Assembly: GCA_963810305.1 (NCBI GenBank)
Contig: CAWEMY010000011.1
Location: 200,912 to 264,911 of the forward strand
Length of the DNA: 64,000 nucleotides
Direction: 5' to 3'
Origin: an uncultured Acidobacteriota bacterium
GTDB lineage: Bacteria; Acidobacteriota; Vicinamibacteria; Vicinamibacterales; 2-12-FULL-66-21
Part shown: positions 5,503 to 60,779 of the stretch, piece by piece
Numbering within the stretch: the first letter of the stretch is position 1
How the letters are laid out: every line of letters starts with the position of its first letter
Notes under the pieces: model-generated
The model's database searches: none
Seen by the model: the letters and a program-made list of their open reading frames with translations, nothing else
What the model was told of the DNA's origin: nothing
Made by a program: the position numbers and the translations under genes

Positions 5503-5528
5503 GTCATTTCAGTCTAGGACGAAGTACC

Positions 5529-11333: not shown

Positions 11334-11357
11334 GTGGGACTCTTTCTGGTATAACGC

Positions 11358-11996: not shown

Positions 11997-11999
11997 GCG

Positions 12000-14074: not shown

Positions 14075-14121
14075 GCTCTTATAAGCAGCGTAGCAGACCG
14101 CTGCTGCTAGAGTACCGGCTG

Positions 14122-14565
14122 ATGAAAACCGCGTGGAACGACGCCGACTATCGGGAGCTGTGTACCAGGCTCGATCGGCTGCAGGCGAGTGCATCTCCCA
14201 AATGGGGCCGCATGACCGCGCCGCAGATGCTCTGCCATTGCACTGACGCGCTGCGAATGGTGAGCGGAGCCCTGCCGACGGCACCCAAGAACGCGCCGAT
14301 CCGGTTTCCGCCGCTGAAGCAATTGATCATTTACTGGCTGCCGTGGCCGAAGGGTGTGCCGACCGCGCCGGAGCTGCTGGCGCGAGCGCCTTCCGAGTGG
14401 CACGGAGAGCTGGTAACGCTCCGCGAGGAACTTGCCGCGCTGGTGAAACGCGGACGGTCAGGGCCGTTCGTGCCACACCCCGCATTCGGGCGGCTGACAC
14501 CACGGGCGTGGGGCGTGCTGGTCTACCGGCACCTCGATCACCATCTTCGCCAGTTCGGCGTTTAG
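14122..14565 (+). CDS. DUF1569 (DinB-like) protein
   Basis: 147 aa. WGRMTAPQMLCHCTDALR...HPAFGRLTPRAWGVLVYRHLDHHLRQFG pattern. Confidence 0.75.
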   Translation: MKTAWNDADYRELCTRLDRLQASASPKWGRMTAPQMLCHCTDALRMVSGALPTAPKNAPIRFPPLKQLIIYWLPWPKGVPTAPELLARAPSEWHGELVTLREELAALVKRGRSGPFVPHPAFGRLTPRAWGVLVYRHLDHHLRQFGV

Positions 14566-14566
14566 C

Positions 14567-14704
14567 ACGTGCGACGTGCGGTGCCGGGTGCCAGGTGCGA
14601 CGTGCGATGTGCCACGTGCGGACGTGCGAACGTGCCAGGTGCGAACGTGCGCCTGGCGCACCCCGCATCCCGCGCCCCGCGCCCTGCGCCCCGCGCCCCG
14701 CGCG
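14567..14704. repeat. Composite heptamer array: NACGTGC-type (14567-14652) abutting a C-run type (14660-14704, G-quadruplex-type on the - strand)
   Basis: Read directly. It fills the whole gap between two convergent stop codons. Confidence 0.9.
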
Positions 14705-15340
14705 CTACGCTACGTGCAAGGCGATCACGAGAACCGGCCAGCAGACGAACGCAGCCAGAGAAAGACCGTACGGGCGGGGGATCGGAAGTGGCAGCACCAT
14801 CGCTACCGCTGTCGTCGTGAAGACGGCGATGGACGCGGCTGTGCCTGGGTTCAGCAGCAGAACAGTTGCCCAGACCAGTGCCGCGACGGGCGCGGGCAGG
14901 CCAATGAATCCGTCAGTCTGCTGGTGCGAAACGTTGTAGAACGCGAGTCTGCTGACGGCGCACGCGACGAAGAAGAACACCGACATCCACCAGAGAACTT
15001 CCAGGCCGGCTGACCTGTCCGCCGAAGCCTGGGCGAAGGCGGAAGCCGGCCTCCACCGCAACAGCAGCATGCACATGGCCGGTGCGACACCGAACGAAAC
15101 GGCATCGACAAGGCTGTCGAGTTGCTCGCCGATGGCGCGCTGATCCTCATCGCGCGCGAACAGCCGCGCGAAACGGCCGTCGAAGGTATCGAGAATGACG
15201 GCGACAGCGATCAGTGCGCCGGCGAGGCCGGGCGACCGCTGGCCGGCGAAGGCGATTGCCCCGAGAGCTGCCAGCAATGACGCATAGGTCAGCAGGTTGC
15301 CGGGATGAAAGCAACGCAGTGGAGAAGCGGACGCCGTCAT
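14705..15340 (-). CDS. CDP-alcohol phosphatidyltransferase (PssA/PgsA-like)
   Basis: DTFDGRFARLF...GEQLDSLVDAVSFG matches the D-x2-DG-x2-AR...G-x3-D-x3-D signature. Polytopic membrane protein. The ATG overlaps the upstream TGA (ATGA at 15337-15340). Confidence 0.85.
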   Translation of the reverse strand: MTASASPLRCFHPGNLLTYASLLAALGAIAFAGQRSPGLAGALIAVAVILDTFDGRFARLFARDEDQRAIGEQLDSLVDAVSFGVAPAMCMLLLRWRPASAFAQASADRSAGLEVLWWMSVFFFVACAVSRLAFYNVSHQQTDGFIGLPAPVAALVWATVLLLNPGTAASIAVFTTTAVAMVLPLPIPRPYGLSLAAFVCWPVLVIALHVA

Positions 15341-18007
15341 GCGGCGCGCTCCAGCGGAAACATCTGATACAGCGTTCGCCAGGTTCGGAGGACGCGCGGC
15401 AGGAACGCCTGGCTACGTACCCGATGGACGACCGCGTACATCGACAGCCGATTGATCAGCAGATCGTATAGAGCACTGCGAAATCCCTCGAGCCACACCG
15501 TTCGGTCAATCACGCCCCCGTGCTGCCGCTCCAGCGCGGTGCGATGTCGATCGATCCACGGAGCGACCCCTTCCAGCGTCGTATCGGCCGGCAGAACGAA
15601 GCAAAGAAACTCCGCGAGGTCACGCTGCGGCGCTCCGATTGTCGCAAGCTCCCAATCGTAGGCGCACAAGCGTCGCATCGCTGCCGCGCAGGCACACGTT
15701 GCGCGGATTGAAATCGTTGTGGATCAGCGTGCGCGGGCCACACTCCAGCGCCGGCCACCACTCTTCAACTCGCGTCAGCAGGCGCCGCTGTATGGCGATG
15801 ATGTCCGTGTCGGACCACGAGGAGAACAGCGGTGCGGCATGATCCGCGAGCGCGCTCCAGAGAGGCGACATCTCCGCCATGCCGCTGGTTGACGGAACAG
15901 ATCCGATCCACGGCCTGGCGCGCAACTCCGCCTCACGGCCGATCCAGATGGCGTGAAGCTCCGCGAGTCCATCGACCGCTTTCGCTATTTGCGACGGTCG
16001 CCATGTCGGATGCGCCGAGACGTCCGCCGCGACGACATCGTCGACGTATTCCAGAGCCGCGATCCAGGTGTGCGTTCCTTCGTCGGCGATGGATCCGAGC
16101 AGGGCAGGCGAGTGTCTACGGAAGCGCGGATCCTGTTGACGGTAGATCTCGATTTCCCGCTCATGTGATGCAGCGAATCCAATTCGGTCGCTGAACCGGC
16201 GATATTGCCGGCCGAGGGTTGGATCCACCAGCTCAGCGAGCGCTTCTCCGACCGCGATGACGTCTGTGTCGCGGGCCTTCACCTTCGTCATCACATCCCG
16301 GCGGCGCCCCTCGCCGTCGGTCAGCCGTACGCGGAAGAGCCCGGTCGTTCTTCCAGATCGCCACGCCGTGAGCTCGCTGATGATGCTGTGGTCTGAACCC
16401 GCGCCGAGGATCTCCACTTTCGAGATCGGCGTACGCAGAAGGCGGGAGAAGAAGGCGCGGTCAAGGGTGAGCGGCTCGACGGCGCGTTCAACAGTCGCTC
16501 TTGCATGCGGTGGGTCAGGCAGGTCCCCGGCGGCGCGGAACGCCGCAAAATACTTCTCGAGTAACGGTGCGTCGAGTGCGACGGCGAGGTGTCCCGTCCG
16601 GCGGAGGAGCGCTCGTGTCGCGGCGCCGGTTGCGTGCACACGCCTCCGTTCCTCGTACAACTCGGGTCAGTGTCAGCCCTCCTGTGCCGGCGGGACGTTC
16701 GAGGAAGAACGAGCGGAGCGGACGAAGCGGATGCGCGGCGCTCGTGGTGCTCAACGGCCGTGTCTCGCGCTCGAGCTGACGCAGCCACTCGTGGTACGAC
16801 ACCAGCCGGACGTCGTACCCGTACATCCTCATCCACAGCACGCATTCACGCCAGTGGCGTGGGCGATCGTGGCCGAGATGAAACACAGGTCCGCGCGCGC
16901 GTGACAGGCGGAGAATGGCGGCGGCCACGCGGTCTACCGGCTCGCAATCCAGATTCCAGTCCAGGTCCGGTGCGGTCCCCATCGCCACGCATCCGCGCAC
17001 CAGCGCCGAGATCAGGTCGTCGCGGTTGAACGCTCCATCAACGCTGTGTCCGGAGATCAGCGCCGGCCGATAGATGCGCACCGGAAGCCCACGGCCACCC
17101 GCCTGCCTCACCAGCGCCTCCGCCACGATCTTCGTTTGCGCGTATCCGAGATGCACACCGCGCAGTGCGGGCAGACTGTCGAGCGTCTCGTCCACGACAC
17201 GCGGGCCTTCCGTCGAGTAACACACCGACAGACTCGATATGAAATGGAAGGGAATTCCACGCCGGCACGCCAGCCGCAGAAGCTCCAGAGTCCCCAGGAC
17301 GTTTGCGCTCCTCAAGGCGCTGTATGTGAACACCCAGTTCACCGCCGCCCCGCAGTGAAGGACCGCGTCGACTTCGCTCGCGAGCTGTTCGAATCGTGCG
17401 TCGCTCAGGCCGAGGCGGGAGTGGCTGAGATCTCCCTCGAGCAACTCGATTCGAGGTTGTTGGGCCGGCTGAAGCCGGCCCCTACCGAGACCGGCGTGAT
17501 GGGCCGGCTGAAGCCGGCCCCTACCGGAGTGCGTAGAGGCCGGCTTTAGCCGGCCTGACTTGCGGCCTCACCAGACACACCAGGGTCGCCGACGTCGTCT
17601 CGAGAAGTTCCTGAATCAGCGCCTGACCGAGAAATCCCGTCCCACCGGTGAGCAGGATCTTTCGCGCGGAACGGAGATCCGTCGTTCGTGCGCTCCGTTT
17701 GGACGTACGAACGTCCGCCGGCAGGACGGCGTCGGCGAACATCTGATCGAAGGGATCTTCGTGCGCGCGGGTACGCGATTCCCTCGCGCATCAGACGCGC
17801 CGCCAGCGTCCTGGCGTCCGCGCAATCGGCGAGCACGTCCGCCGGCAGATCGCAACCGAGCTCCGCCTCCAGCGCCGCGGCAAGTTCGATCGTCGCAAGC
17901 GAGTCGAGCCCGAGAAGGTCGAACGGCGTTGCCGGGTCGATTTGCACGTCGGACCGAAGGCACCGTGCGGCCACGGCGGTGATCGTGGATTCGAGTTGTT
18001 CGGTCAT
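15337..18007 (-). pseudogene. ACP - thioester reductase - APH-like phosphotransferase fusion, read in several frames (frameshifts near 17775, 16660 and 15685, plus a REP insertion at 17462-17556). Either a genuine pseudogene or indel errors.
   Basis: ACP motif LGLDSL. Reductase N-terminus ILLTGGTGFLGQALIQELL, then HCGAAVNW and a YAQTK catalytic region. Reductase tail PLRSFFLERP / LYEERRRVHATGA...DAPLLEKYF. It runs without a stop into a kinase-like domain ending HNDFNPRNV / YDWELATIG. Confidence 0.75.
17462..17556. repeat. REP-like elements (family B): two direct copies plus one inverted copy, inside the reductase coding region
   Basis: gggccggctgaagccggcccctacc at 17462-17486 and 17501-17525. 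The inverted copy gtagaggccggctttagccggcct is at 17533-17556. Confidence 0.85.
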
Positions 18008-19722
18008 GACGTGGGTACCCCAGTTCGGGAGGGATCACTCCAGAAGGCGAGCAGCTGGAACTCACCCGCACGAAACGCCGCGCGGCAGAGGAAGCGTTGG
18101 AGCTTTCCGCTGGTAGTCTTCGGCAGGCTTCCCGGCGGCACGAGCGCGACGGCGCACGGAGACACCTGGTGCCGCTCGGCGACGGAACGCCTGACCGACG
18201 CGATGGCCTGCTGGAGGTCGCCGTCGGATTCCGACCGGGCGGGATCGGTCTCGGCGACCAGCGCAATGCATTCCTCTCCGTCGCGATCGACGGCAAAAGC
18301 CGCGCAGCAGCCCGGACGAACGGCTGGATGCGCTTGCTCCGCGGTCGCCTCGAGGTCCTGGGGATAATGCTTCACGCCGCGGACTATGAGGACGTCCTTG
18401 ATCCGCCCGGTGACGAACAGCCTGCCATCGACGATGCATCCAAGATCGCCGGTGCGCAGGTAGGGACCGTCGCCGGAGTCCGAGATCACCGCGCCGAAGA
18501 CCTGCGCCGTGTCCTCGGGCTTGTGCCAGTAGCCAGAGGCAACGCTCGGGCTGTTCACCCAGATTTCGCCGATGTCGCCGTCCGCCACGACGACGCGAGA
18601 TTCGGGATCGACGATGCGGATCGCGTGCCCGTCATCGATGACACCGGAGCTGACGAGGGAACGCCCGTCCGGCGTATCGACGAAGACCGGCCCATCCTCT
18701 GGACCGCTCGAAACCAGCAAGGTCGATTCGGCGAGACCGTAAGAAGGTCGCAGGGCTTCCCAGCGGAAGCCGCACGGAGCGAAGGTGCGATGAAAGTGTT
18801 CGAGGGTCGATCGGCGGACCGGCTCGGAGCCGTTGTACGCCAGGCGCCAGGTCCGCAGGTCGAGCGCCGAGCGATCTTCGTCACTGACGCGCCGCGTGCA
18901 CAGGTCATAGGCGAAGTTGGGTCCGCCGCTGTGGGTGGCCCCGTAACGCGAGATCGCCTGCAGCCAGCGCGCGGGTCTCTGGAGGAACGCCGCCGGCGAC
19001 ATCAGGTACGAGGGATAGCCGCTGAATACGGGCTGCAGCACCCCGTTGATGAGCCCCATATCGTGATTCACGGGAAGCCACGACACCCCGGCGCTCGTCG
19101 AGTCGTACCTCCCGAGAGCCGCGCCGCGGGCGAGGTTATCCAGCAGGTTCGCGTGTGTGACGACGACTCCGCGGGGTATCGCAGTGGAACCTGACGTGTA
19201 CTGCAGCAGCGCCACGCTGTCGGCGCCTGCGGACGGCGGACGCCAACTGTCCGCCGCTTCGTCTGGCACCTCTTCGACGTTGACCCAGCGAAGCCCCGAC
19301 AGTTCAGGCACGAGCGCCTGGAGCAGAGGCGCGCGCTCGTGAACAGCCGTTGACGACAGGACGAGCGTGACCCCGGCGTCCGCGATCATGCCTCGCAGAC
19401 GCGTGCTCGACCGGTCAGCGCGCGCCGAGGACGGCGGGTAGGTCGGGATCGCGATCGCCCCCGCGTAGAGGACCCCGAAAAACGCCGGAACGAAATCCAC
19501 TGACGGGGGCAGCAGGATCAGCACTCGCGCACCCGGCTCACTGTGCGAGGCGAGAACCGCCCCGATCGCTCGGCTGCGGGCATCTATCCGGGCCCACGTC
19601 AATGAGGCGTGTTCGCGCTCCCCAGCTTCGAGGAACGTGAACGCGGTATCGCCCCCCTGTGCCGCCGCCCGGTCGCGCAGCAGCTCGATCATCGATACCG
19701 GACCGTGTGTAGTCACGCGCAT
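18004..19722 (-). CDS. Fatty acyl-AMP ligase (FAAL-type adenylating enzyme)
   Basis: LQYTSGSTAIPRGVVVTH (A3 core), YLRTGDLG, GRIKDVLIVRG and KTTSGKLQR. Starts at the ATG at 19722. Intact, 572 aa. Its stop overlaps the ACP start (ATGA at 18004-18007). Confidence 0.9.
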   Translation of the reverse strand: MRVTTHGPVSMIELLRDRAAAQGGDTAFTFLEAGEREHASLTWARIDARSRAIGAVLASHSEPGARVLILLPPSVDFVPAFFGVLYAGAIAIPTYPPSSARADRSSTRLRGMIADAGVTLVLSSTAVHERAPLLQALVPELSGLRWVNVEEVPDEAADSWRPPSAGADSVALLQYTSGSTAIPRGVVVTHANLLDNLARGAALGRYDSTSAGVSWLPVNHDMGLINGVLQPVFSGYPSYLMSPAAFLQRPARWLQAISRYGATHSGGPNFAYDLCTRRVSDEDRSALDLRTWRLAYNGSEPVRRSTLEHFHRTFAPCGFRWEALRPSYGLAESTLLVSSGPEDGPVFVDTPDGRSLVSSGVIDDGHAIRIVDPESRVVVADGDIGEIWVNSPSVASGYWHKPEDTAQVFGAVISDSGDGPYLRTGDLGCIVDGRLFVTGRIKDVLIVRGVKHYPQDLEATAEQAHPAVRPGCCAAFAVDRDGEECIALVAETDPARSESDGDLQQAIASVRRSVAERHQVSPCAVALVPPGSLPKTTSGKLQRFLCRAAFRAGEFQLLAFWSDPSRTGVPTS

Positions 19723-20402
19723 CGCAGCTCCTGGTGTGTCCGCACAAAAAGCGCACGAACTTTTTCCTTGTTCTCGACGACGTCGGTCTCTTTCCAGTCG
19801 GTGGTGTGGATCGGCGGGCAGCACGTAGACGTCCACGATGCCGCGGCCTGCCCGATATCCGAGACCGGGATCGACATCGGTCGGGATGTGGAAATACATC
19901 GGCACGATTGGCGCGCGCAGAACGGTCGCGAGGTGGAATGCACCCTTGTTGAAGTGCCCGATGTCCCCGGTCGTGATCCGGCCCCCTTCGGGGCTCAGGT
20001 AGACCGATTCGCCCGTCCGCCGCAAGACCTCGCCTGCCCTGGTGAAGATGCGTCTGCGTTCGTCCGGCCGATCCTGCGGGACGGTGAAGAACGTGCCCAT
20101 CATCGACGCGATGAAGCCGAGCGGGATCCACTTGCGCAGGAAGCCACTCAGGAAGAAGCGGGTGTTCGGCAGACCCAGGGCAACGAGGATGAAGAGGTCC
20201 AGCGTGGACGTGTGGTTCGACACGTAGACGGTCTGGGTGCGCGGAAATGCCGTGTGTCTTCGCCGCCTGGGAGCGGCAGCGCTGCTGATGAACCCGCATG
20301 CGGACGCCGTAGCAGGCGCAGAATGCAGCGGGCGAGCAGGGTGGCGATGCGCGCGTACAGCCGCCGCGCGCGGAAGAGCGTCACGACGCCGAGCGGCAAC
20401 AT
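19713..20402 (-). pseudogene. PlsC-type lysophospholipid acyltransferase, read in at least three frames (shifts near 20250 and at the CCC run near 19816)
   Basis: NHTSTLD (H-x4-D) and PEGGR motifs lie in the frame of the 806-aa ORF. The conserved tail PPIHTTDWKETDVVENKEKVRALF with its own stop at 19713 is in another frame. The plausible N-terminus MLPLGVVTLFRARRLYARIATLL is in a third frame. Confidence 0.7.
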
Positions 20403-20460
20403 GCGCGACGGCCGTCAGCGTCATCAGCAGCGAGGCTGATGACGCCCAGTGCGATCGCCT

Positions 20461-21474
20461 TCACTGCGCCCTCCTGCAGATCACCGTCTGCATTGCCAGG
20501 TTCAGTCGTCTTTCGAACAGCAGCAGCGGCAGTAGCAGGATCTGTCCAACGAAGTAGGGGAAGATCGCCTTGTCCAGGTTCAGGCCACGCCCTTTGAGCA
20601 GGCGGAATGCGGCGCCCGTGAACAGGTAGAAGTACGCGGGGAAGGCGCCGTACGGCAGGTAGTCGACTACCTCGAGGCCGGACTTGCGCACGGCGCGCAG
20701 CAATGTGTCGCGGTCGAAAAGCACGGTGTGTTGCGGCGCCTGCAGACCCGGCCAGCGATTGCCGAACCAGCGGAACGTCCGGCTGTCGAGGCGCGGCACT
20801 TCAATCACGAGCCGACCCTCTGGTTTCAACACGCGCCGCGCCGTCTCGAGACTGCGCAGCGGATCGTAGTCATGCTCCAGGAAGTGCCACATCGTTACCA
20901 GGTCGAACCGGTCCGGCGCGAGATCCGCCTCGTAGAAGAGGCCGCAGTGAAACTCGACTTGCGCCAGTGAGGAGGCAGCGCTGAGGTCCTTGAAATCCAC
21001 TCCGCACACGTGTGCACCCGTCGTGCGGCGCAGCCGCTCGAGGAAGGTGCCCACCGCACACCCGACGTCGAGGACCTGACTCGAAGGTCCCAGCGACACG
21101 TAGCGGGAAACGATCCGATCCTTGGCGGCATCGAGCTTGTTCATCGCGCGCTCGAAGAGCGGCGTCAGCAATCCCCAATTGCGCTTCTTGCGATGCGCGA
21201 TGTAGGTGTCGTCGTAGTACCCAGCGATGTGTCGCAGCGACACGCGTGGATTCTGATAAGCGAGATCGCATCGCGTGCAGCGCACGAACTGAAACTCCCC
21301 GGGCGTGCCCCCGAGATCGTCCTGGGCGGTTACGAACGGGCGTGTCTCAGTCGCTCCACACAAGTAGCAGGAGACCCGTTCGAAGAAGTCGGCCGGCCGT
21401 CGAACCGACTGACCTGAGGCGGCCTCCAGGCCGGCGTACGAGTCCCGATCGACGACCGCGTCGATGACGTTCAT
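20461..21474 (-). CDS. Class I SAM-dependent methyltransferase with an N-terminal Cys4 zinc ribbon
   Basis: CYLCG...CTRCDLAY, then the SAM motif VLDVGCAVGTF and the WHFLEHDYDP motif. The ATG at 21474 overlaps the upstream TGA. Confidence 0.85.
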   Translation of the reverse strand: MNVIDAVVDRDSYAGLEAASGQSVRRPADFFERVSCYLCGATETRPFVTAQDDLGGTPGEFQFVRCTRCDLAYQNPRVSLRHIAGYYDDTYIAHRKKRNWGLLTPLFERAMNKLDAAKDRIVSRYVSLGPSSQVLDVGCAVGTFLERLRRTTGAHVCGVDFKDLSAASSLAQVEFHCGLFYEADLAPDRFDLVTMWHFLEHDYDPLRSLETARRVLKPEGRLVIEVPRLDSRTFRWFGNRWPGLQAPQHTVLFDRDTLLRAVRKSGLEVVDYLPYGAFPAYFYLFTGAAFRLLKGRGLNLDKAIFPYFVGQILLLPLLLFERRLNLAMQTVICRRAQ

Positions 21475-22037
21475 GAATGTCCTCCAACAAGCCGGGCAAG
21501 CGGACTGGCGGGGTCGTGCCATGCCTCGTAGACGCACACGATGAGATAGAGCACCATCGCGACAGAGAGAATCTGAACGGGCGCTTCGAGCACGCGCGAG
21601 CCCGCCACGATCCCCACCATCGCCGGGTACTTTGCGAGGAGCAGCTGCTCCCCTGCGACGCTGCGGCGGGTTCGGGCCAGGTACCAGACCCCCAGAGCGG
21701 CGGTCAGAACGGCAAGCACGCCGACGGCGATTCCACTCGGGTCCCGCCATATCGCGAGGCAGATATTCAGCACGGCGAGAGCACCGCACAAGGCCACGAT
21801 CTGCGTCCCTTCGCCGTCACGCACGAGCACCCGGCCCGGGTGCTCGACACGATCGCGGCCGCGGTCGGCCAGGTCGTCCCACATTCGGAACTGCGCCAGC
21901 AACAGCAGCGCGACCGCGAAGTCGATGGCGAACGACGTCCAGGACGCCGGTGGCACGATGACGGCCGCGGCAATCAGCAGCGCCAACGGCAGGAAGAGGC
22001 GGAGCCGGAAGCGTTCGCGGAGGTAGCTCACGACCAT
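21471..22037 (-). CDS. Small polytopic membrane protein with one Asp-rich motif (WDDLADRGRD; UbiA-like?)
   Basis: 188 aa from the ATG at 22037, with five or six hydrophobic helices. ATGA overlaps at both ends. Confidence 0.6.
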   Translation of the reverse strand: MVVSYLRERFRLRLFLPLALLIAAAVIVPPASWTSFAIDFAVALLLLAQFRMWDDLADRGRDRVEHPGRVLVRDGEGTQIVALCGALAVLNICLAIWRDPSGIAVGVLAVLTAALGVWYLARTRRSVAGEQLLLAKYPAMVGIVAGSRVLEAPVQILSVAMVLYLIVCVYEAWHDPASPLARLVGGHS

Positions 22038-24577
22038 CACCGCGCCTCCACATGGACGATCCCCTGGTTGCCGTCGACGACGACACGCGCGCCATGGGGA
22101 ATGAGGCGGGTGGCGTCCTTCACCCCGACGACAGAGGGGATGCCGAACTCGCGCGCGATGATCGCGCCGTGGGAAAGCATTCCGCCTCTCTCGATGACCA
22201 GACCCGATATGAGCGGAAAGATTGGCGCCCAGCCAGGATCGGTCTGGCGCGTCACCAGGACGTCCCCTTTGGCAAGCCGGTGCGACTCGGTGACGTCGAG
22301 CAGGATCGCGGCGTTCGCCGTCGTTCTTCCTCCGCATGCTCCGACGCCGGCGAGCTGCGCTTCTGGTTGTTCGATCCCCCTCGCACCGGGATGCGCTTCG
22401 GGCCGGAAGTATTCGCCGACCGGAATCGCCATCGAGTCAGGCGGCGTGGTCTTACTCAGTTCGGCGTGAGCGGCCTTGGTGATGTCGATGATTCGCGCCA
22501 GATGGTCCGGAAACATCGCGCCACCGGCAGCGAGCAGTTCGAGCTCTTCCGCGGTCAAATAGAAGACATCATCGCGGTGTGTTACGCGCCCCGTGGCGGC
22601 GAGCCGCTCGCCGATCTCGAGAGCGACGCGGCGCAGCCGGCTGTACAAGAGCGCCTGCTTCAACCGAGCGCGTTCCCGCAACTGAATCGACCGCTGTGTC
22701 CAGCGAAGGATCGTCGCGACGATCAGCCTTTGCCTCCAGCCGAGCGCAGCCAGCACTGCGTGGGTCTGCTCGAGGCGCTCGGACTTCTGTCGCTTCAATA
22801 AGTCGACAGGCGAGTCGCCGTCCAGTGCCGCATATGCCTTGAGCAGCTCGATGACGGGCGCGGGCTCTTCCTGGAAGCTTGGGACGGTGAGCATCAGTTC
22901 CGCGGAGCAGCGAAACCCCCAGTGCTCCAGATAGTCCTCGAGTGCCCCGCGGAAGGTGGCGAATCTGCTCGTCGGTGGAGAGCGCGGCGAGCACCTCATC
23001 GGGTCGTTGATTCCGAATCAGTGCAGTCAGCGCCTCGTCGCGGCGGATCATCCGCGACAGCTCCCACAGCCGCACGGCAGGAACGCCGCTCACCAGGTCA
23101 GGCAGCGCTTTGAGAAGGGAGTTGTGGAGTGACTGCTGGTCGCGGCCGGGGAACGAATGCGTCAGCAGCCGCTGAAGCGCTGCGTAACACACCATGGACG
23201 CCGCGTCAGCGAGTGACGCGTTCTTCCAGCGATGGCATCGTATGTCGATGAAGCCGCGGAAATCGTCCAGAAGCTCGGATTGGGTCTTCTGCTTCAGTCG
23301 CTCGGGACGAGTCTCGGCCGCGTAGTCATCGACTGTCTGTTCGAACTGTCGCACGCGGCTCGTCAGGAAAAGGTATTGCCAGGTGGTCTTTGCCGCGATC
23401 CACGCGAGCTCGAAGGCCTGGCGCACCCGGTAGGCCGCACCAGCGCGTGGGGTCGTGGTCTCCTCGGCCCCGACGAACTGGTTGAACGATGCGGCGAGCA
23501 GGTCTCCGAACGGCGCTGACCGGAGCACCGAGTGGATGCTCGTCAGGTTGTAGTACATCCGCGCGCCGTGGACGCCGATGATCTGGCGCAACGCCGGCTC
23601 CATCAGGCGCAGGCGGCGCTCAGAAATGCCGAAGGCGCTGCCCAGATTGCGGAAGTAGTGGTAGTAGCCGGCGCGCGCGATCGAATAGAGGAGCGGCGAA
23701 ATCGGCTGCGGGAAGTTCTCGTTGACGTTGGCGTTGGACCAGAAGCAGGTGCGTGGGTCCGTGGGCCCCTGGGTCCGGGCGGCATTGGATCCGTGGGTCG
23801 TAATCGGGCGAGACTGGACGATCCACAGCTTTCCAGCGGCGTCGATCGTCCACTCGATGTCCTGCGGGCAGCCGAACGCCGCTTCGATGTCGAGTGCGAG
23901 AGCCGCAAGCTCGGCGATCTTGACGTCGTTCAGCAGGACCGCCTCCGCAACCGGCACATCGTCCGGCGCCGCCAGGCGCACCCATCGTAGAGGCCGTCGC
24001 TGTCAGCCGGCCGGCTTCAGCCGGCCTGTCAGCCGGCCTGTCAATCGCAACCCGACCCGGATTCACCGCGCCCGAGACGAGCGCTTCTCCCATCCCTCCG
24101 CAGTACTCGACGAGCATCTGCTGCGGGTCGGTCGGCGACACCGTGAAGAGGACACCCGACAGCACCGCCTCCACCTGCCGCTGAACGATGATCCCCATCC
24201 CGTCGAGTGCCTTGCCACGCGCCTTCTGATAGGCGAGGACACGCGGTGACTGCTCGCGAGGCCCACACTCGTTCGATCGCTGAGCGGAGCAACGGCTCGG
24301 TGGTCACGTCGGCAACGGAATCGAGCTGCCCGGCGAATGAGGCATCGGCCGAGTCTTCGCCGATCGCCGAGCTGCGGACGATTACGGGCGCAGAGAGAAG
24401 CGGCATCAGCTCTTCGAACTCGATCGCGCCGGCGACGAGCACCTCGTTCGGGATGACAATCCCGTCGGGCACCCGCGCTCCCGCCGCCATGAGCCGGGCA
24501 AGGTTCGCCGCCTTGCCACCGCAGCCGGTGAGCTCTGTCGCTTCGGAGAGCGGCACAAGGGAAGTGAGGACGTTCAT
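22037..24577 (-). pseudogene. PEP-utilising phosphotransferase with rifampin-phosphotransferase-like architecture (PPDK_N ATP-grasp + central domain + C-terminal swivel His domain). Frame changes near 24250 and 22965, and a REP insertion at 23987-24043.
   Basis: N-terminus GGKAANLARL...VRSSAIGEDSADASFAGQLDS. Then SPRVLAYQKARG...GIIVQRQVEAVLSGVLFT and PQDIEWTID...LWIVQSRPIT. C-terminus TRQTDPGWAPIF...GGMLSHGAIIAREFGIPSVVG. The pieces lie in different frames. Confidence 0.75.
23987..24043. repeat. REP-like element (family B, with partial duplications) inside the PPDK_N coding region
   Basis: gtagaggccgtcgctgtcagccggccggcttcagccggcctgtcagccggcctgtca. The reading frame differs on its two sides. 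Confidence 0.8.
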
Positions 24578-25143
24578 GCCGGGCGCGCCTTCAATCCGAG
24601 TTGGAACATCACCACGCTGAAGACCCAGTGGATGGCGGGTCCGACAATCAGAACGACCGCCCACGTCTGCCACGGCATCGGCACGAGGACAGTCATGGCA
24701 AGCAGCATCCCGATCCCTGAGTCCAGACGGTCGGCCAGGAACTGAATCGCGGATGAAACGCGCTTGAACGGCGCAGCCCCGGGGACGATATCGAGCTGCC
24801 GCTTGACGAACGAGTTCGGCAGCTCGCCGGCCATGAATCCGAAGCCTGCCGCCGCACCTAGCGCCGCGAACCATCCAGTCGAGAGGTCCCACAAGCCGGC
24901 TGACGCGGGCGTGATCGCAGCCAGCAGCGCGAACGAGGCGGCCGCGGCTGGCACCATCACCACGAACCCGCGGATGGTCTTGTTCGCGCCGAAGAGCCTC
25001 CGCCGGCGAAAGCGCAGCCCGCCGTCGAGCGGCAGCGCGAACGCCCTCGACATCGGAGACGCGAACCACGCCGTCTGCGCAACGCCGGCGAGGGTGAACG
25101 CCAGCAGGATGAACGCGCCGCAGGCAGTCGCATCGAGCGGCAT
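24574..25143 (-). CDS. CarS-like (CDP-archaeol synthase / DUF46 family) CTP-dependent cytidylyltransferase
   Basis: 189 aa and polytopic. GANKTIRGF, GELPNSFVKRQL and LADRLDS line up with the archaeal CarS motifs G-D-G-K-T-W-R-G-F, G-D-L-x2-S-F-I-K-R-R and V-D-Q-L as I recall them. Confidence 0.65.
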   Translation of the reverse strand: MPLDATACGAFILLAFTLAGVAQTAWFASPMSRAFALPLDGGLRFRRRRLFGANKTIRGFVVMVPAAAASFALLAAITPASAGLWDLSTGWFAALGAAAGFGFMAGELPNSFVKRQLDIVPGAAPFKRVSSAIQFLADRLDSGIGMLLAMTVLVPMPWQTWAVVLIVGPAIHWVFSVVMFQLGLKARPA

Positions 25144-25150
25144 GGCGGTG

Positions 25151-26111
25151 CTAGACGTCAAAGCCGGTTTCCAATCGATTCTGGAACAGCAGGACGTCGC
25201 CGGGGATGCGCTTCGCCCGCGAGATCCACTGCCACCAGCCGATCTCGTTTTCAGGCGAGTACGGAATCCGGCGCAGGTGGTAGCCGGGCACGAATGGATA
25301 CATGTGATGCAGCTCGTGCGCGTCGAAATGAAGAACGAAGGCGGACGCCAGCGCGCGGCAGCCGGAGCGAGCGGGTAAATGGTTCCTGCTCGATCGCGGG
25401 GAACGGCTTGACCGCCGCTCCGTGACTGACGTTCTGAGGCACGTGGGTGTGCTGACTCAGAAGGAGCAGATCCTCCATCGCGAGGCTGAGCAGCAGCGCA
25501 AGGCCGCAGGCGCGAAGCATGGCTGCCGGCCCGAGGAGCGCCGTGACGACGGCATACAACGCGACGAGGGTCAGCACGTCCCGGACAAGCGCGCGCCGGT
25601 CGGACGGTTTCGGAAACATGCGCAGCAGCCGCGCGAGGTGCCAGTAGTTGCTCACGCGGTAGATGATGGAGAACAGCGGGATCCAGAGCCGCCAGCAGGT
25701 ATTGACCAGCGTCCGCTCGGCGCGCCCGAGCGGACGCGGCACCAGCGATTCGGTCGTCGGATCGAGGTCCTGCCAGCCCGTCCACTTGTGATGTCGTCCG
25801 TGGACGCGCGTCCAGGCGTGGTATGGGATCAGCGAGAAAGCGGCGGCGACCCGTCCTGCTGCCGCATGCCATCGGCGGGTGCGAAACAGCGTTTCATGCC
25901 CGCATTCGTGCAGGATCACGAACCACTGGACGAGCATGACGGCAAGGAGGGCCTGACCGCACAGCCACAGGACCCATCCGCCGGCGAACGACAGCACCAG
26001 GCCGAGCACCGTGCCCGCCGAGGCGATCGCGATCACCCGCAGCCCGGCCGCATTCGTCGCGCGGAGGTGAGTCAGGTCGGCCGGAAAAGGTGCCCCCTCG
26101 CTGCGTCCCAT
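25151..26111 (-). pseudogene. Membrane fatty-acid desaturase-family enzyme with one frameshift near 25345
   Basis: His boxes HECGH and HGRHH are in the ORF frame. The third box, HELHH (ALASAFVLHFDAHELHHMYPFVPGYHL), and the stop TAG at 25151 are in the +1 frame. Confidence 0.8.
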
Positions 26112-26129: not shown

Positions 26130-26280
26130 TAGTCCAGCCCTTTAGGGCTGCCCATCGAAGGTCGTCCAGCCCTTCAGGGCTGTCGTAGTCGTAGTCCAGC
26201 CCTTTAGGGCTGTTTTCGTAAACAGCAGGCCAGCCCTTTAGGGCGTTCGTCTCCTCGAGTCCAGCCCTTTAGGGCTGTCT
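26130..26280. repeat. Array of five REP-like hairpins (family A: GTAGTC-CAGCCC-TTTA-GGGCTG)
   Basis: Hairpins at 26135-26150, 26167-26182, 26197-26212, 26231-26245 (degenerate) and 26262-26277, spaced about 30-34 nt apart. Confidence 0.9.
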
Positions 26281-27291: not shown

Positions 27292-28065
27292 TCACAGCGC
27301 GCGCCCCAGCACCGCTTCGAGCTTCGGACGATAGCCACGGCTCAGCGTCAACGTCGTTCCGTTCTTCAGCACCAGCGTGAAGTCGCCGTGGAAGTCCGGC
27401 AGCAGTTCGCGGACGCGGTCGATCTGCACGATTGACGAGCGATGGACGCGGACGAACCGGTCGGGATCCAGCTCCCGCTCGAGACGGCCCATCGTGTCGC
27501 GCACTAAGTACTCGCGCGAACCGGCATGAAGCGTGACGTAGTTGTCAGCCGCGCCGATCCAGTCGACATCCGCGAGATCGAGCACATGAACTCTCCCCTC
27601 GGTGCGCACCGGGATCCTCGTCAGATGCTTTCGTCCGGGGGCGAGAGCCTCGAGGAGCGCCAGTACGCGATCGTCCACTCGCACGCCCTGTCTCTCTTCC
27701 ACGCGCACTCTGGCGCGGGAGATGGCGGTCGCCAGGCGTTCGGCCTCGACGGGCTTCAAAACGTAGTCGAGCGCGTGTACCTCGAACGCGCGCAGGGCAT
27801 ATTGGTCGTACGCGGTCACGAAGATGACGACCGGAATTTCCTCCGGAGACATCGCCTGAAGTAATGCGAACCCGTCCAGCTCCGGCATCTGCACATCGAG
27901 AAGGACGATATCCGGTGAGAGCTCGCGGATCATGTCGAGGGCCGTCGCCCCGTCGCCGCATTCACCGGCGACGACGACCTCCGCGATCGCGCGCAGCAGC
28001 CGTCGCAGCCGTCTCCGTGCGACCGGTTCATCGTCGACGATCAGGACGCGGAGCGGGTCGCTCAT
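27292..28065 (-). CDS. LytR/AlgR-family response regulator (REC + LytTR)
   Basis: VLIVDDEP...DIVLLDVQMPELDG receiver domain, with a LytTR-type C-terminal DNA-binding domain. Confidence 0.9.
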   Translation of the reverse strand: MSDPLRVLIVDDEPVARRRLRRLLRAIAEVVVAGECGDGATALDMIRELSPDIVLLDVQMPELDGFALLQAMSPEEIPVVIFVTAYDQYALRAFEVHALDYVLKPVEAERLATAISRARVRVEERQGVRVDDRVLALLEALAPGRKHLTRIPVRTEGRVHVLDLADVDWIGAADNYVTLHAGSREYLVRDTMGRLERELDPDRFVRVHRSSIVQIDRVRELLPDFHGDFTLVLKNGTTLTLSRGYRPKLEAVLGRAL

Positions 28066-29112
28066 TCACGTCCTCGCCGCGTCGGTCTGAAACGGGACCA
28101 CAATCTGCACGCGGGTGCCTCCGGCCGGCCGGCTGGCGATGTCGAACACATGGGTGTCGCCGTACACGGCCTTGAGACGCTCGCGTATGTTGCTGAGGCC
28201 GATCCCGTCCCGAATGGCTGCCGGATCGATTCCCGGTCCATCGTCTTCGACTTCTATGATCAGGCGGTCCGCGTCACGCCGGGCGCGGATGATGATGCTG
28301 CCGGCAAACCGGTGAGCCCCGATTCCGTGCTTGATCGAGTTCTCGACGAGCGGCTGAAGAATGAAGATCGGCACCAATGCCGCAGTGATGTCGTCAGGGC
28401 GCTCGACACGGGCGCTCAGGCGATCGCCGAATCGCGCGTGCTGGATGTCCAGATACTTCGACGTCAGCTCGAGCTCACGGTCGAGCCGGACCAGATCAAC
28501 ACCACCGGAGTCGAGCGTCTCGCGAAGGAGTTGGCTCAATCCGGTAATCATTCTTTCGGCAGTCGCCGGACTCTCGTGGACCAGCTCCGCGATCGCATTG
28601 AGGGTATTGAAAAGAAAGTGGGGATGGAGCTGCATGCTGAGAAGTTGCAGCCGCGCATCGGCGAGCCGCGCCTCGGCATGCAGCGCACGCAGCTCGCGTT
28701 CGCGCTCGCCGCGGTAGTACGCGTGGACGTGAACCACCGCGATGATGCCCCAGTAAATCAGATAGTGTGTGGTGAGGTTGCTCAAGAGGAAGTACTGGTG
28801 GACCCCCATCGCGTTCCGCGCCATGCGCGTGAGTGACACCTTGAGAATCGCCACCGGCAGGCCGACAGCCGCCAGGATCAGCGCACGGCGCACCCAGGCG
28901 CTGCGGGTGAGCAGCAGACGTCTCGCGAGCCATGCGACCAGCGGCGTCAGGGCCGCCCATACGTACCACTCCGTCAACGCCATCGAGAGCGTGAGGCCCC
29001 ACCGCGGAGGCTGATACGTGATCGCGTAGGTGAGCGAACTGCTGACCGCGAAAACCACGGCGAGCAGCGTCCAGCCGGCAAGAACGGCCAGCCATAGCAG
29101 GCTTCGGCGCAT
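28066..29112 (-). CDS. LytS/YehU-type sensor histidine kinase
   Basis: Four N-terminal TM helices, LHPHFLFNTLNAI (His_kinase region) and an HATPase tail (ENSIKHG...DDGPGI). Its stop codon directly abuts the response-regulator start. Confidence 0.9.
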   Translation of the reverse strand: MRRSLLWLAVLAGWTLLAVVFAVSSSLTYAITYQPPRWGLTLSMALTEWYVWAALTPLVAWLARRLLLTRSAWVRRALILAAVGLPVAILKVSLTRMARNAMGVHQYFLLSNLTTHYLIYWGIIAVVHVHAYYRGERERELRALHAEARLADARLQLLSMQLHPHFLFNTLNAIAELVHESPATAERMITGLSQLLRETLDSGGVDLVRLDRELELTSKYLDIQHARFGDRLSARVERPDDITAALVPIFILQPLVENSIKHGIGAHRFAGSIIIRARRDADRLIIEVEDDGPGIDPAAIRDGIGLSNIRERLKAVYGDTHVFDIASRPAGGTRVQIVVPFQTDAART

Positions 29113-29160: not shown

Positions 29161-29550
29161 TTAACGGACGGCAGGTGCCTCGGTCGACGCCGCTCCCGCC
29201 CGTCGCGTCCAGTACGCGCGACGCGCGAAGGCGACGATCCCGAGGACGCTGAAGAACACCAGCTCGCCAACGCCGCTCCCTCCGTGTGTCAGTCGTGTAA
29301 TGGCGGCTCCGACCATGACCACCATCAGCGTCAGTGCCGCGGGAGTGGCGAGCTTCGGCACCAGGAGTGCCAGTCCGCATACGGCCTCAATACCGCCAAT
29401 CACCAGGTAAAAGTGATCCGGGTAGCCCCACACTCGGAACATGCGCTCCCAGGCAGGACTCGTGAACTTCTGGATACCCGAACCGGTCATCGCCAGTGCC
29501 ATCAACGCTTGCAACAACCACACGCCACCGATCCGTAACTTGCGCATCAA
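29161..29550 (-). CDS. DoxX-family membrane protein
   Basis: 129 aa with four TM segments. GSGIQKF...GIEAVCGLALL pattern. Confidence 0.75.
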   Translation of the reverse strand: MMRKLRIGGVWLLQALMALAMTGSGIQKFTSPAWERMFRVWGYPDHFYLVIGGIEAVCGLALLVPKLATPAALTLMVVMVGAAITRLTHGGSGVGELVFFSVLGIVAFARRAYWTRRAGAASTEAPAVR

Positions 29551-29655
29551 TCACCCCCAAGGAGAGGGATCGTCCGCTACAGGGCAGCGTCCGGCGCAGC
29601 TGATTGGGGTGAGTTGGAGAATATCGGGGCAGACTGGACGACCTCCCCGGGGCCT

Positions 29656-29757
29656 GCGACCCGTGATCGACGACCCGTGCTCGACGCCCCGCGCTCCGCG
29701 AACTGCGCCGCGACCCGCGCTCCGCGACCCGCGAACCGCGAACCGCGAACCGCGAAT
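29656..29757. repeat. CGCGA(A/C)C heptamer tandem array
   Basis: Degenerate units from about 29656. Near-perfect units cgcgacc, cgcgaac x3 and cgcgaat at 29723-29757, ending 10 nt before the peptidase start codon. Confidence 0.9.
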
Positions 29758-29767
29758 ATACTGCGGC

Positions 29768-31481
29768 ATGCACCGCCGATATCTGATCCCCGCCCTTTTC
29801 ATCGCCATTGTCGCCCCCGGCGTGATGGCCGAGCAGCCGTCACGCGGCGGTGTCAGCTCGATCACGGAAGCGAACTTGAAGGAGTGGCTGACCTACATCG
29901 CGTCCGACGAGCTCCAGGGGCGCGCGACCTATACCGAGGGCCTTGGCCTCGCGGCGGGTTATATCGCCGGCCACCTGAAGGAGTGGGGAGTGAAGCCGGC
30001 CGGCGAGCACGGCAGTTATCTTCAGACCGTGAAGGTGCAGGGCATCCGCACCAACAGCAAGGCATCCGTCACCGTGGACGTCAACGGCCAGTCGCGGACG
30101 TTCAAGGACGGCGAAGGGATCACCTTCTCGCGCCAGATGGGAGCGAAGCAGACGATCGACGCAGGCGATGTGATCTTTGCCGGATACGGGCTGCAGATCC
30201 CCGCAGCCGACTTGAATGATTACGCCGAGGGTTCTCCGAAGGGAAAGGTTGTCGTCTATCTCGGCGCGCAGGGTCCGGCGACGCTACCGGCAGGATCCGG
30301 CAGGCTGCTCATCGCGCGCGGCCGTTCCGCGGTCGAAAAGGGGGCTGCGGCGGTGATTTCTCCGGGAAGCGCGTTCACCGGCCGTGGCGGCACTCCAGCA
30401 GTACCCGCGGCGCCGACCGGCGGTCGAGGCCAGCAGCCGGCCGACAATGGTGATTTCACGACCGTCCAGCGATACGACGCGGTCGTCACACCGCAACTGT
30501 CGGCGCAGGACTCCTTTCTTCGAATTCCTCTTCAGCGGGTCGGACCTGAAGTACGCGGACCTGAAGGCAATGGCGGACAAGCGCGAGCCCCTGCCACGCT
30601 TTGCGCTCAAGGGCGTGAAGGTGACGATCAACGTGGATGCCGACTATCAGATCGTTCGCACCCGGCGCACCAACAACGTGGTCGGCATCGTCGAGGGCAG
30701 TGACCCGAACCTCAAGGACACCTACGTCGCCTTCGGCGCGCACTACGACCACGTCGGTTATCGCGAGGGAGGAGTACCGGCGGGCGGTGGCGCGGATCCA
30801 GGGGGATGCACGGGCCAGGTGCGACCCACGCCCGATCCCGGCGACGTCATCAGTAATGGCGCAGACGACGATGGATCCGGGACGGTGGCGCTGATGGCGC
30901 TCGCAAAAGCGTTTGCGACTGGACCGAAACCGAAGCGGTCACTGCTCTTCGTCTGGCACGCGGGCGAAGAAAGCGGGCTCCTCGGGTCGCGGTATCACGC
31001 CGACTTCCCGGTCGTGCCGCTCGACAAGATCGTCGCGCAGCTCAACATCGACATGATCGGCAGGAACCGATGCGACGATCCGGCGCAGTCGAACACCGTC
31101 TTCGTCGTCGGAGCAGACCGTATCAGCACCGAGCTTCACAACGTCAACGAGGATGCGAACCAGTCGCTGTCGAAGCCGTTGACGATGGATTACGAGATGA
31201 ATGACCCGGCCGATCCGCAATCGATCTACACGCGGAGCGATCACTACAGCTACGCCCTGAAGGGGATCCCGATCATTTTCTACTTCACCGGTCTGCACAA
31301 GGATTACCACTTCGTGACCGACGAAGTGTCGAAGATCGAGTTCCCGAAGATGGCGCGGGTGACGCAACTCGTGTACACGACCGGTCAGCGGGTCGCCAAC
31401 ATGGACAAGCCGCCAACGCGGGACAACAAGGGCCCGCGCGCCGGCAAGGGAACTTCAGGGAAGCTCCCGACGGACCGGTAG
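29768..31481 (+). pseudogene. Secreted M28-family aminopeptidase (PA domain + M28 catalytic domain) with one frameshift at the TTT run near 30517
   Basis: Signal peptide MHRRYLIPALFIAIVAPGVMA. The second frame carries NVVGIVEG, AHYDHVG, GADDDGSGTVALMALAKAF and WHAGEESGLLGS. Confidence 0.8.
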
Positions 31482-60651: not shown

Positions 60652-60779
60652 AACACGCCCAACTTCTTGCGTTGCCCGTGCGAATGGGAGTCCGACCCAA
60701 TGATTGCGCTGCGCGCTGAATGAGCTGAATGGTAGGAGCCACCAGGCGCATAGTGAGTGCGCCTGGTGGCCTAGTTGCA

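Follow-up and report, generated by a model that had tools for sequence, protein, structure and literature searches.

A CarS-family gene in a conserved eight-gene cluster of an uncultured Acidobacteriota bacterium

Genes at the locus

We analysed a 64,000-nucleotide stretch of DNA from an uncultured soil Acidobacteriota bacterium (the window), focusing on a CarS-like gene and the genes that accompany it. The cluster comprises the following features, listed in gene order:

25151–26111, minus strand: membrane fatty-acid desaturase/hydroxylase family, first gene of the cluster; one frameshift near 25356
24574–25143, minus strand: predicted CarS-like integral membrane CTP-transferase, 189 aa, intact (PF01864, 5GUF, hhalign)
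22037–24577, minus strand: rifampin-phosphotransferase/PigC-like dikinase with PPDK_N ATP-grasp, middle and C-terminal PEP-utilizers swivel domains
20461–21789, minus strand: SAM-dependent methyltransferase (Methyltransf_23/11/25); N-terminal extension poorly conserved
18004–20424, minus strand: PlsC-type acyltransferase and fatty-acyl-AMP ligase (PF01553, PF00501), one 806-aa ORF
15337–18007, minus strand: ACP, thioester reductase and APH/EcKL-fold kinase (PP-binding, NAD_binding_4 and APH matches)
14705–15340, minus strand: CDP-alcohol phosphatidyltransferase, PssA/archaetidylserine-synthase-like (PF01066, 51.1 bits), last conserved gene of the cluster

The CarS-like gene was stop-free on reverse-strand translation and is placed here on the minus strand, which corrects the preliminary description. 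Its product begins with MPLDATACGAF and ends with LGLKARPA. The mechanical ORF extended upstream as far as 25872; however, the homologues were 188–193 aa long and shared a common start site (one of them, P0001, has 189 aa and is 94% identical), supporting the ATG at 25143 as the start. The ATGA overlap reported earlier was recovered, with the TGA stop (24576–24574) overlapping the ATG of the dikinase gene (24577–24575).

On the upstream side, 7 nt separate the desaturase stop from the CarS-like ATG. PF00487 matched the ORF at 25251–26111 (66.3 bits), and the desaturase C-terminus (HELHHMYPFVPGYHL...FDV*) lies in another frame. The orthologue is intact in two related loci, L025 and L004 (319 aa), and the window carries one extra base at 25356 compared with L025. 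The dikinase is split over four frames, with PPDK_N and PEP-utilizers matches on four ORF pieces; in L004 and most loci, one ORF of 850 aa encodes it. Its best PDB matches were 5FBS/5HV1 (~5e-59), which we take to be the Listeria rifampin phosphotransferase, and its NCBIfam matches were RPH, PigC and RedH, every score falling far below the family cut-off. The position of the methyltransferase is conserved in those related loci that reach it.

Nearly all relatives encode the acyltransferase and the ligase in two genes that overlap, with separate ORFs of 249 aa and 596 aa in L004 and others, and the fatty-acyl-AMP ligase gave FAAL-type NCBIfam matches. The ACP-reductase-kinase region occupies four frames here (17546–18007, 16515–17444, 15620–16660 and 15337–15678); in relatives it encodes one protein of ~900 aa, a single 907-aa ORF in L004 and at least eight other loci. 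The thioester reductase matched MxaA (4U7W) at 2e-69, and the kinase region had no match among PDB sequences at E up to 1. The last piece of this region (15337–15678), a 'hypothetical' ORF of 113 aa, aligned with 16 orthologues and carries YDWELATxGAPQRDLAEF, presumably an APH/choline-kinase-type motif. This ORF was considered as a soluble cytidylyltransferase of a Kennedy-type pathway and rejected, since it bears the kinase motif and is contiguous with the kinase in intact relatives; it is the C-terminal lobe of that kinase. A CdsA-signature regular expression run over the window hit only a chance HGGVIDR inside the same piece.

The CDP-alcohol phosphatidyltransferase named in the preliminary description is present at the distal end. 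Its L004 orthologue scored 84.6 bits against TIGR00473 pssA (cut-off 107) and 84 bits against archaetidylserine synthase (cut-off 240), and the best PDB matches of the transferase were 7POW/7B1K, a CDP-DAG-serine O-phosphatidyltransferase (5e-12). The ORFs downstream (14327–14668 and 12893–14284) are without counterpart in related loci. An Rfam scan of the window gave no matches, and promoter and terminator scans found none above shuffled expectation.

The operon described earlier is interrupted in this window by several frameshifts, the CarS-like ORF itself being intact. The breaks in the desaturase (one), dikinase (three) and ACP-reductase-kinase (three), together with the abnormal acyltransferase-ligase fusion, would suit a decaying pseudogene array in which the CarS-like ORF is a functionless remnant, a reading we judge improbable. 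Genes outside the cluster are broken as well, namely an M28 peptidase (29441–30703 and 30384–31481; 569 aa in L025) and, apparently, a MacB-like permease across 40272–42937, and similar breaks occur in L002, L006 and L019, most other related loci being unbroken. This distribution fits assembly indel errors better than gene decay, and the frameshifts in the window are probably assembly errors. If they were real, the pathway would be non-functional in this organism.

Family, fold and conserved residues of the CarS-like protein

The assignment of the gene to the CarS family, first made from motifs, is confirmed and lies far beyond chance. The protein matched PF01864 at 37.1 bits (gathering cut-off 22; E 4.2e-9, Pfam) over residues 38–186, corresponding to profile positions 30–172 of 175. 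A phmmer search reached Aeropyrum pernix CarS (PDB 5GUF_A) at E 0.0033 over nearly the full length, and hhalign comparison of the bacterial and archaeal CarS alignments gave 99.7% probability (E 1.3e-25, 136 columns). In the HMM comparison proposed with the earlier assignment, PF01148 (CdsA/CTP_transf_1) did not match the window protein at E up to 10. Fused relatives in some cases, and archaeal CarS proteins in many, gave weak PF01148 matches, reflecting the superfamily link. The three motif blocks are present exactly as described: FGANKTIRGF, AGELPNSFVKRQL and LADRLDSG.

The proposed structural check pointed the same way. The AlphaFold2 model (pLDDT 89.5, pTM 0.86) contains five long helices (residues 5–28, 58–77, 89–116, 128–151 and 158–181) and two loop regions, and reproduces the 5GUF-type five-helix membrane fold with two cytoplasmic loops. 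In a Foldseek search of the PDB, 5GUF was the only credible match (probability 1.00, TM 0.49/0.57), with 28% identity over 167 columns and a moderate superposition (rmsd 5.7 Å). CdsA was absent among the top fold matches. Neither of the outcomes named beforehand as refuting the family assignment, a lack of any significant PF01864 match or a fold unrelated to CarS, was observed.

Most polar residues that are invariant in archaeal CarS are retained. The equivalent pairs (A. pernix/window) are D41/D40, K57/K55, D100/E107, K107/K114, R108/R115, D122/D138, D125/D141, H157/H172 and K170/K185, D100 being replaced by E. The archaeal-invariant positions kept (A. pernix numbering) are D41, G54, K57, G61, G99, F105, K107, R108, G115, D122, D125, H157 and K170; those changed are P23, N28 (to F), G56 (to N), R109 (to Q), Q123 (to R), F126 (to S) and N161 (to S). 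The second cytoplasmic loop has an insertion of ~9 residues compared with archaeal CarS, and the N-terminal 37 residues did not align to archaeal CarS. The changed invariant positions and the loop insertion suggest that the substrate, or even the chemistry, may differ from that of archaeal CarS.

Relatives are named 'CDP-archaeol synthase' or 'CDP-2,3-bis-(O-geranylgeranyl)-sn-glycerol synthase' in public sources. Taken with PF01864 membership, these names would make the protein a true CDP-archaeol synthase that activates isoprenoid DGGGP for archaeal-type ether lipids, which we regard as very improbable. The score against the NCBIfam CarS equivalog NF003114 was 57.8 bits, well short of the cut-off of 148, and the bacterial proteins form a separate, monophyletic clade only ~25% identical to archaeal CarS. 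Neither the cluster nor the other Pfam-scanned ORFs of the window contain GGGPS, DGGGPS/UbiA or G1P dehydrogenase; the conserved partners are all fatty-acid enzymes (fatty-acyl-AMP ligase, ACP-reductase and PlsC). As regards substrate, the name 'CDP-archaeol synthase' that databases give to bacterial CarS-like proteins is probably wrong.

A profile search returned ~1,650 representatives of clusters formed at 50% identity; soil metagenomes were rich in matches. There was no cultured carrier among the top matches, and a search seeded with a Pyrinomonadaceae orthologue gave metagenome and MAG proteins only. A full-text literature search found no description of the bacterial CarS clade or of the eight-gene cluster, and CarS is not mentioned in Coleman et al. 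2019.

Conservation of the cluster and a candidate lipid pathway

The gene order was common to 23 of 24 related genome loci: desaturase, CarS-like, dikinase, methyltransferase, PlsC acyltransferase, fatty-acyl-AMP ligase, ACP-thioester reductase-kinase fusion and PssA-like CDP-alcohol transferase. This eight-gene cluster was found in at least seven bacterial groups, with loci from Acidobacteriota, Gemmatimonadota, Verrucomicrobiota, Planctomycetota, Myxococcota and Gammaproteobacteria. The junction between the CarS-like stop and the dikinase start was ATGA in 18 of the 24 loci and GTGA in three. Gene fusions tie the CarS-like domain to PlsC (P0441, P0464, P0477 and P0503), to the RPH-like dikinase (P0414), to both (P0451, Oligoflexus) and to the reductase (P0486), and these fusion proteins come from independent assemblies.

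Family membership, fold, retention of most polar invariant residues, conserved synteny and gene fusions are directly supported. We consider it moderately likely that the gene encodes a bacterial-clade CarS-family CTP:lipid-phosphate cytidylyltransferase acting in a self-contained lipid pathway. On the best reading, its product would be the CDP-activated form of a non-canonical lipid phosphate made by the cluster; the substrate would probably be an unusual phospholipid precursor, possibly ether-linked. The preliminary description had likewise suggested a non-canonical CDP-lipid consumed by the distal transferase. That idea is strengthened by the gene order in at least seven groups, the ElbD-like domains, the PssA-like transferase, the fusions and the finding of no other cytidylyltransferase candidate in the cluster; the identity of the substrate is the part that we infer.

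We propose the following model, in which the cytidylyltransferase chemistry, the nature of the lipid, the order of the steps and the head group are conjectural. The fatty-acyl-AMP ligase would first charge the ACP portion of the ACP-reductase-kinase protein with a free fatty acid, and the MxaA-like thioester reductase would release it as an aldehyde or alcohol. The reduced chain would then enter a non-canonical backbone, which might be of a diol type or of an ether type like that of the ElbD system, and the PlsC-like acyltransferase would add a second chain. Phosphate might come from the RPH-like dikinase, which is translationally coupled to the CarS-like gene, or from the reductase-fused kinase. 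The CarS-like enzyme would convert the resulting phosphatidic-acid analogue and CTP into a CDP-lipid, in which the PssA-like transferase would replace CMP with serine or a comparable alcohol. Final tailoring of the product would fall to the methyltransferase and the desaturase-family enzyme. PssA-like and archaetidylserine-synthase-like transferases are of a type that uses CDP-lipid donors, and the one encoded here is likely the consumer of the CDP-lipid. Two features of the cluster count against this model, namely the presence of two kinases (the dikinase and the reductase-fused kinase) and the lack of a recognisable ether-bond-forming enzyme among its genes. The low equivalog score, the altered archaeal-invariant positions and the moderate superposition of the CarS-like protein on 5GUF also weigh against it.

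The altered archaeal-invariant residues would also be compatible with a different activity, that of a CTP-dependent lipid kinase acting on a fatty or lipid alcohol made by the cluster. Such an alcohol could be supplied by the MxaA-like reductase, and the wider CdsA-type CTP-transferase superfamily offers precedent in dolichol kinase and the phytol kinase VTE5, both CTP-dependent lipid kinases. However, the cluster already encodes two ATP-dependent kinases, and the PssA-like transferase needs a CDP-activated donor that no other enzyme of the cluster would provide. To our knowledge, every PF01864 member characterised so far is a cytidylyltransferase. We consider the kinase reading unlikely.

We also give little credence to the protein being a redundant or alternative CDP-diacylglycerol synthase on ordinary phosphatidic acid, in which case the clustering would be uninformative on substrate. 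CarS and CdsA are structural homologues that share the same chemistry (PMC9385802, PMC7018664), and the PlsC-type fusions would also fit a route from lyso-PA through PA to CDP-DAG. The strict cross-phylum linkage to the fatty-acyl-AMP ligase, ACP-thioester reductase and RPH-like dikinase, together with the reductase fusion, argues instead for a dedicated, reduced lipid. Moreover, archaeal CarS, where characterised, selects against PA as a substrate (Jain et al. 2014, reviewed in PMC9385802).

The favoured cytidylyltransferase reading can be extended further. The cluster might amount to a complete and hitherto undescribed aerobic pathway for non-canonical phospholipids (ether, vinyl-ether or diol) in Acidobacteriota and other phyla. 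The dikinase would then do more than deliver a phosphate: by phosphorylating the fatty aldehyde or alcohol made by the reductase, it would enable an ether or vinyl-ether bond, and the CarS-like and PssA-like enzymes would form a head-group line that runs parallel to CdsA and does not depend on it. We offer this as a speculative extension that is unlikely to hold; if true, it would open a genetic way into the question of how bacterial ether lipids arise in soil Acidobacteria.

CarS is regarded as the enzyme that stands in archaea for bacterial CdsA, and it counts among the marker enzymes of the 'lipid divide'. In the cluster described here, synteny, translational coupling and gene fusions link a distinct bacterial CarS clade to enzymes of fatty-acid reduction and re-esterification. 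This suggests that Acidobacteriota have a CDP-activation step dedicated to an unusual lipid. The phylum has figured in discussions of where bacterial ether and tetraether lipids, with their unclear biosynthesis, come from (PMC10087280, PMC11868695), and the eight-gene cluster offers a small, directly testable gene set.

Comparison with known systems

Among characterised lipid gene clusters, we compared the eight-gene cluster with the elb ether-lipid cluster of Myxococcus xanthus (MIBiG BGC0000871), relying on the published description of ElbD and its four-domain make-up (PMC9426513; bioRxiv 10.64898/2026.06.23.733905). The adenylation, thiolation/ACP, NAD_binding_4 reductase and AGPAT/PlsC domains are all present and syntenic, distributed over three genes compared with the one ElbD polypeptide. 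In contrast to elb, the reductase is fused to a kinase, and the cluster adds the CarS-like protein, the RPH-like dikinase, the methyltransferase and the desaturase. Elb-like clusters have been reported in Acidobacteriota subdivision 6 and Poribacteria, and CDP-alcohol phosphatidyltransferases adjoin some of the acidobacterial ones (bioRxiv 10.64898/2026.06.23.733905); the terms 'archaeol', 'cytidyl', 'dikinase' and 'pyruvate' did not turn up when that preprint was searched for them.

The dikinase has the same PPDK_N ATP-grasp domain, long middle domain and C-terminal swivel His domain as RPH and PigC/RedH, but differs in being coupled or fused to a predicted membrane CTP-transferase. We know of no such coupling or fusion for RPH or PigC.

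CdsA (PF01148; Thermotoga maritima CdsA) transfers CMP from CTP to a membrane lipid phosphate, presumably the same type of reaction as that of the CarS-like protein, and is much larger than this 189-aa protein. Archaeal CarS (A. pernix, 5GUF; Archaeoglobus fulgidus) shares with the CarS-like protein the PF01864 family, a similar size, five TM helices, two cytoplasmic loops and most invariant polar residues of the GxxKT, G(D/E)xxxSFxKR, DxLD and H...K blocks, whereas the partners of the CarS-like protein are fatty-acid enzymes rather than GGGPS and DGGGPS. The distal transferase is most similar to the phosphatidylserine/archaetidylserine synthase subgroup, represented by Methanocaldococcus jannaschii PSS (7POW/7B1K). 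In archaea, CarS is followed by archaetidylserine synthase, and the CarS-like and PssA-like pair in the window has the same two-step logic.

Family, fold and conserved residues of the CarS-like protein

Translation of the CarS-like gene (window 24574-25143, reverse strand) gave 189 codons open from ATG, containing the three blocks quoted in the preliminary description (FGANKTIRGF, AGELPNSFVKRQL and LADRLDSG). The mechanical ORF reaches upstream to 25872, the extra stretch overlapping the preceding gene in another frame; because the homologues are 188-193 aa long with an N-terminus identical in position, the 189-aa call is correct. The ORF is intact and shares 94% identity with the homologous protein P0001.

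The proposed comparison of PF01864 with CdsA was performed with Pfam models. The protein matched PF01864 (CarS-like) at 37.1 bits (gathering score 22), whereas CdsA (PF01148) gave zero match even at E up to 10. A single-sequence PDB search retrieved Aeropyrum pernix CarS (5GUF_A) at E 0.0033 over nearly the full length. Separate alignments were then built from 18 archaeal CarS proteins and from a diverse set of 19 bacterial relatives, and the profile-profile comparison of the two gave 99.7% probability (E 1.3e-25, 136 columns, 30% identity).

An AlphaFold2 model based on 24 homologues was confident (pLDDT 89.5, pTM 0.86) and predicted five long helices with two loop regions between them, in agreement with the published A. 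pernix CarS topology of five helices and two loop regions (PMC9385802, PMC7018664). Foldseek against the PDB returned 5GUF as the sole credible match (probability 1.00, TM 0.49/0.57), with all other matches at E > 1. With the PF01864 match and the fold match to 5GUF, neither a missing family hit nor an unrelated fold was found, and the assignment to the CarS family therefore stands.

Among the archaeal-invariant columns (A. pernix numbering), D41, G54, K57, G61, G99, F105, K107, R108, G115, D122, D125, H157 and K170 are kept, an invariant E stands in place of D100, and P23, N28, G56, R109, Q123, F126 and N161 are altered. The window protein also differs from archaeal CarS in a ~9-residue insertion in the second loop and in its first 37 residues, which are unalignable.

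Neighbour joining placed the bacterial sequences in one clade apart from every archaeal one; mean identity was 51% among bacterial sequences, 44% among archaeal ones and 25.5% across the two groups. The exhaustive profile search yielded 1,652 cluster representatives (50% identity) with E no higher than 1e-3, of which 73 reached 1e-30 or lower. Public pipelines already name these bacterial proteins 'CDP-archaeol synthase', so the family match itself is not new. The sole NCBIfam match, the CarS equivalog model, scored 57.8 bits where the cut-off is 148, and the protein is therefore a family member rather than an equivalog. A true CDP-archaeol synthase is made highly improbable by this score, by the separate bacterial clade and by the lack of any GGGPS, DGGGPS or G1PDH gene in the cluster or in the other window ORFs scanned.

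Gene order, coupling and natural fusions of the cluster

We surveyed one genome per species and found 24 loci, all in metagenome-assembled genomes, labelled Acidobacteriota (Vicinamibacterales, Pyrinomonadaceae), Gemmatimonadaceae, Verrucomicrobiaceae, Planctomycetaceae, Myxococcales, Gammaproteobacteria and Spirochaetes; the nearest relatives were Acidobacteria/Vicinamibacterales. A tblastn search with the window's neighbour genes showed a gene order common to 23 of the 24 loci, visible only up to the contig end where contigs end early.

Cluster genes in order
1, FA_desaturase-family protein, ~320 aa
2, CarS-like protein, ~190 aa
3, PPDK_N ... PEP-utilizers protein (dikinase), ~850 aa
4, methyltransferase, size variable
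5, PlsC-type acyltransferase, ~250 aa
6, fatty-acyl-AMP ligase, ~600 aa
7, ACP-thioester reductase-kinase fusion, ~900 aa
8, CDP-alcohol phosphatidyltransferase, ~200 aa

The reported ATGA overlap was present, the TGA stop of the CarS-like gene sharing bases with the ATG of the dikinase gene; this junction is ATGA in 18/24 loci and GTGA in 3/24. The distal phosphatidyltransferase noted previously was likewise recovered (ORF 14705-15340, same strand, PF01066 at 51.1 bits). Two loci departed in arrangement: in L017 the desaturase lies at the far end and ligase, reductase and kinase share one ~1,400-aa open frame (11356-15570), and in L024 (Spirochaetes) the order is rearranged and a 399-aa frame running from stop to stop (5758-6954) has the CarS-like part as its C-terminal half.

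Neighbour proteins were assigned on the unbroken locus L004. The 850-aa dikinase showed rifampin phosphotransferase (RPH) architecture, with top PDB matches 5FBS/5HV1 (~5e-59), entries deposited as 'phosphoenolpyruvate synthase' that we take to be Listeria RPH; in NCBIfam it matched the prodigiosin ligases PigC and RedH, all under cut-off. The reductase matched the myxalamid terminal reductase MxaA at 2e-69, an enzyme that reduces the thioester all the way to the alcohol. ACP, MxaA-like thioester reductase and APH/EcKL-fold kinase form one ~900-aa protein (L004 13964-16687), with equivalent single ORFs in L008, L009, L010, L012, L013, L015, L018 and L022. We know of no description of such a reductase-kinase fusion, which suggests that the reduced product is phosphorylated directly. 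The last gene was nearest to pssA and archaetidylserine synthase in NCBIfam and to M. jannaschii PSS structures in the PDB, and this terminal enzyme requires a CDP-activated donor. The 113-aa 'hypothetical' ORF ahead of this last gene was rejected as a separate domain and belongs to the kinase as its C-terminal lobe (motif YDWELATxGAPQRDLAEF), leaving the CarS-like protein as the sole cytidylyltransferase candidate in the cluster.

Distant representatives from the profile search included natural fusions, which independently link the CarS-like protein to acylation, phosphorylation and reduction steps.

Fusions of CarS-like proteins
P0441, P0464, P0477, P0503: with PlsC acyltransferase, ~390-404 aa (P0441 and P0477 each on three contigs)
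P0451: with PlsC and RPH-like, 1,228 aa, Oligoflexus
P0414: with RPH-like, 964 aa
P0486: with NAD_binding_4 reductase, 552 aa (second member of identical length)

State and surroundings of the window locus

In the window desaturase the reading frame shifts once, through an additional base at 25356 that the intact 319-aa orthologue in the related locus L025 lacks, and the dikinase and ACP-reductase-kinase are each spread over four frames. Similar breaks occur in L002, L006 and L019 and are absent from most other related loci; they are probably assembly indel errors rather than pseudogenisation. Many long window genes are hit and short genes are unbroken. Outside the cluster, an M28 peptidase is split (29441-30703 and 30384-31481; 569 aa in L025), and a MacB-like permease is apparently split across 40272-42937. 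At 18004-20424 a single 806-aa ORF covers both acyltransferase and ligase, for which nearly every related locus has two genes that overlap in different frames; this ORF may be a real fusion, resembling E. coli Aas, or another indel artefact.

The window has 65% G+C and also encodes several MacB/FtsX-type permeases, DUF3738 and PD40-repeat proteins. Five tandem copies of a REP-like-looking 16-nt palindromic hairpin element, AGCCCT(A/G)AAGGGCTGG, spaced 30-32 nt apart, occupy the Fpg-desaturase intergenic region (26134-26276, reverse strand), which is only ~84 nt in the 94%-identical relative L025; a further copy lies at 60779-60796 (11 matches, both strands counted, vs 0.11 expected by chance). 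Fpg and the cluster are directly preceded, on their own strand, by a paired LytTR-type response regulator and His_kinase (PF06580) sensor (27292-29112), with a PAP2-family phosphatase ~7 kb beyond (33126-33869); L025 has the same arrangement. A 756-aa ATP-dependent DNA ligase with a long N-terminal extension, divergently adjoined by a RecQ-family helicase (2885-7370), is unrelated to the CarS-like finding.

Proposed role and comparison with known lipid pathways

The myxobacterial ether-lipid enzyme ElbD contains adenylation, ACP, reductase and AGPAT domains (PMC9426513; bioRxiv 10.64898/2026.06.23.733905). All four are present in the cluster, which adds around them a kinase, a CTP-transferase and a PssA-like transferase. 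On these domains and this three-step logic, we therefore judge that the CarS-like protein probably CDP-activates a phosphatidic-acid analogue that the cluster itself makes from a reduced fatty acid and that may be of ether or diol type. The PssA-like enzyme would consume the resulting CDP-lipid, and the methyltransferase and desaturase would perform tailoring steps. There is a small chance that the CarS-like protein is instead a lipid kinase using CTP, an activity known in the wider superfamily from dolichol and phytol kinases, and a similarly small one that it is an ordinary CDP-DAG synthase.

In the literature searched, we found no paper discussing the bacterial CarS clade, its RPH-like dikinase coupling or the cluster. 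CDP-alcohol transferases adjoin some elb-like clusters in subdivision-6 Acidobacteriota (bioRxiv 10.64898/2026.06.23.733905); a search of that paper for the terms 'archaeol', 'cytidyl', 'dikinase' and 'pyruvate' had no match. The CarS-like protein represents a variant enzyme within an uncharacterised, widely distributed lipid cluster. As a producer of CDP-lipid, it would act in a kinase/CTP-transferase/PssA-like sequence that resembles bacterial DAG kinase, CdsA and Pss, the last two steps also resembling archaeal CarS followed by archaetidylserine synthase.
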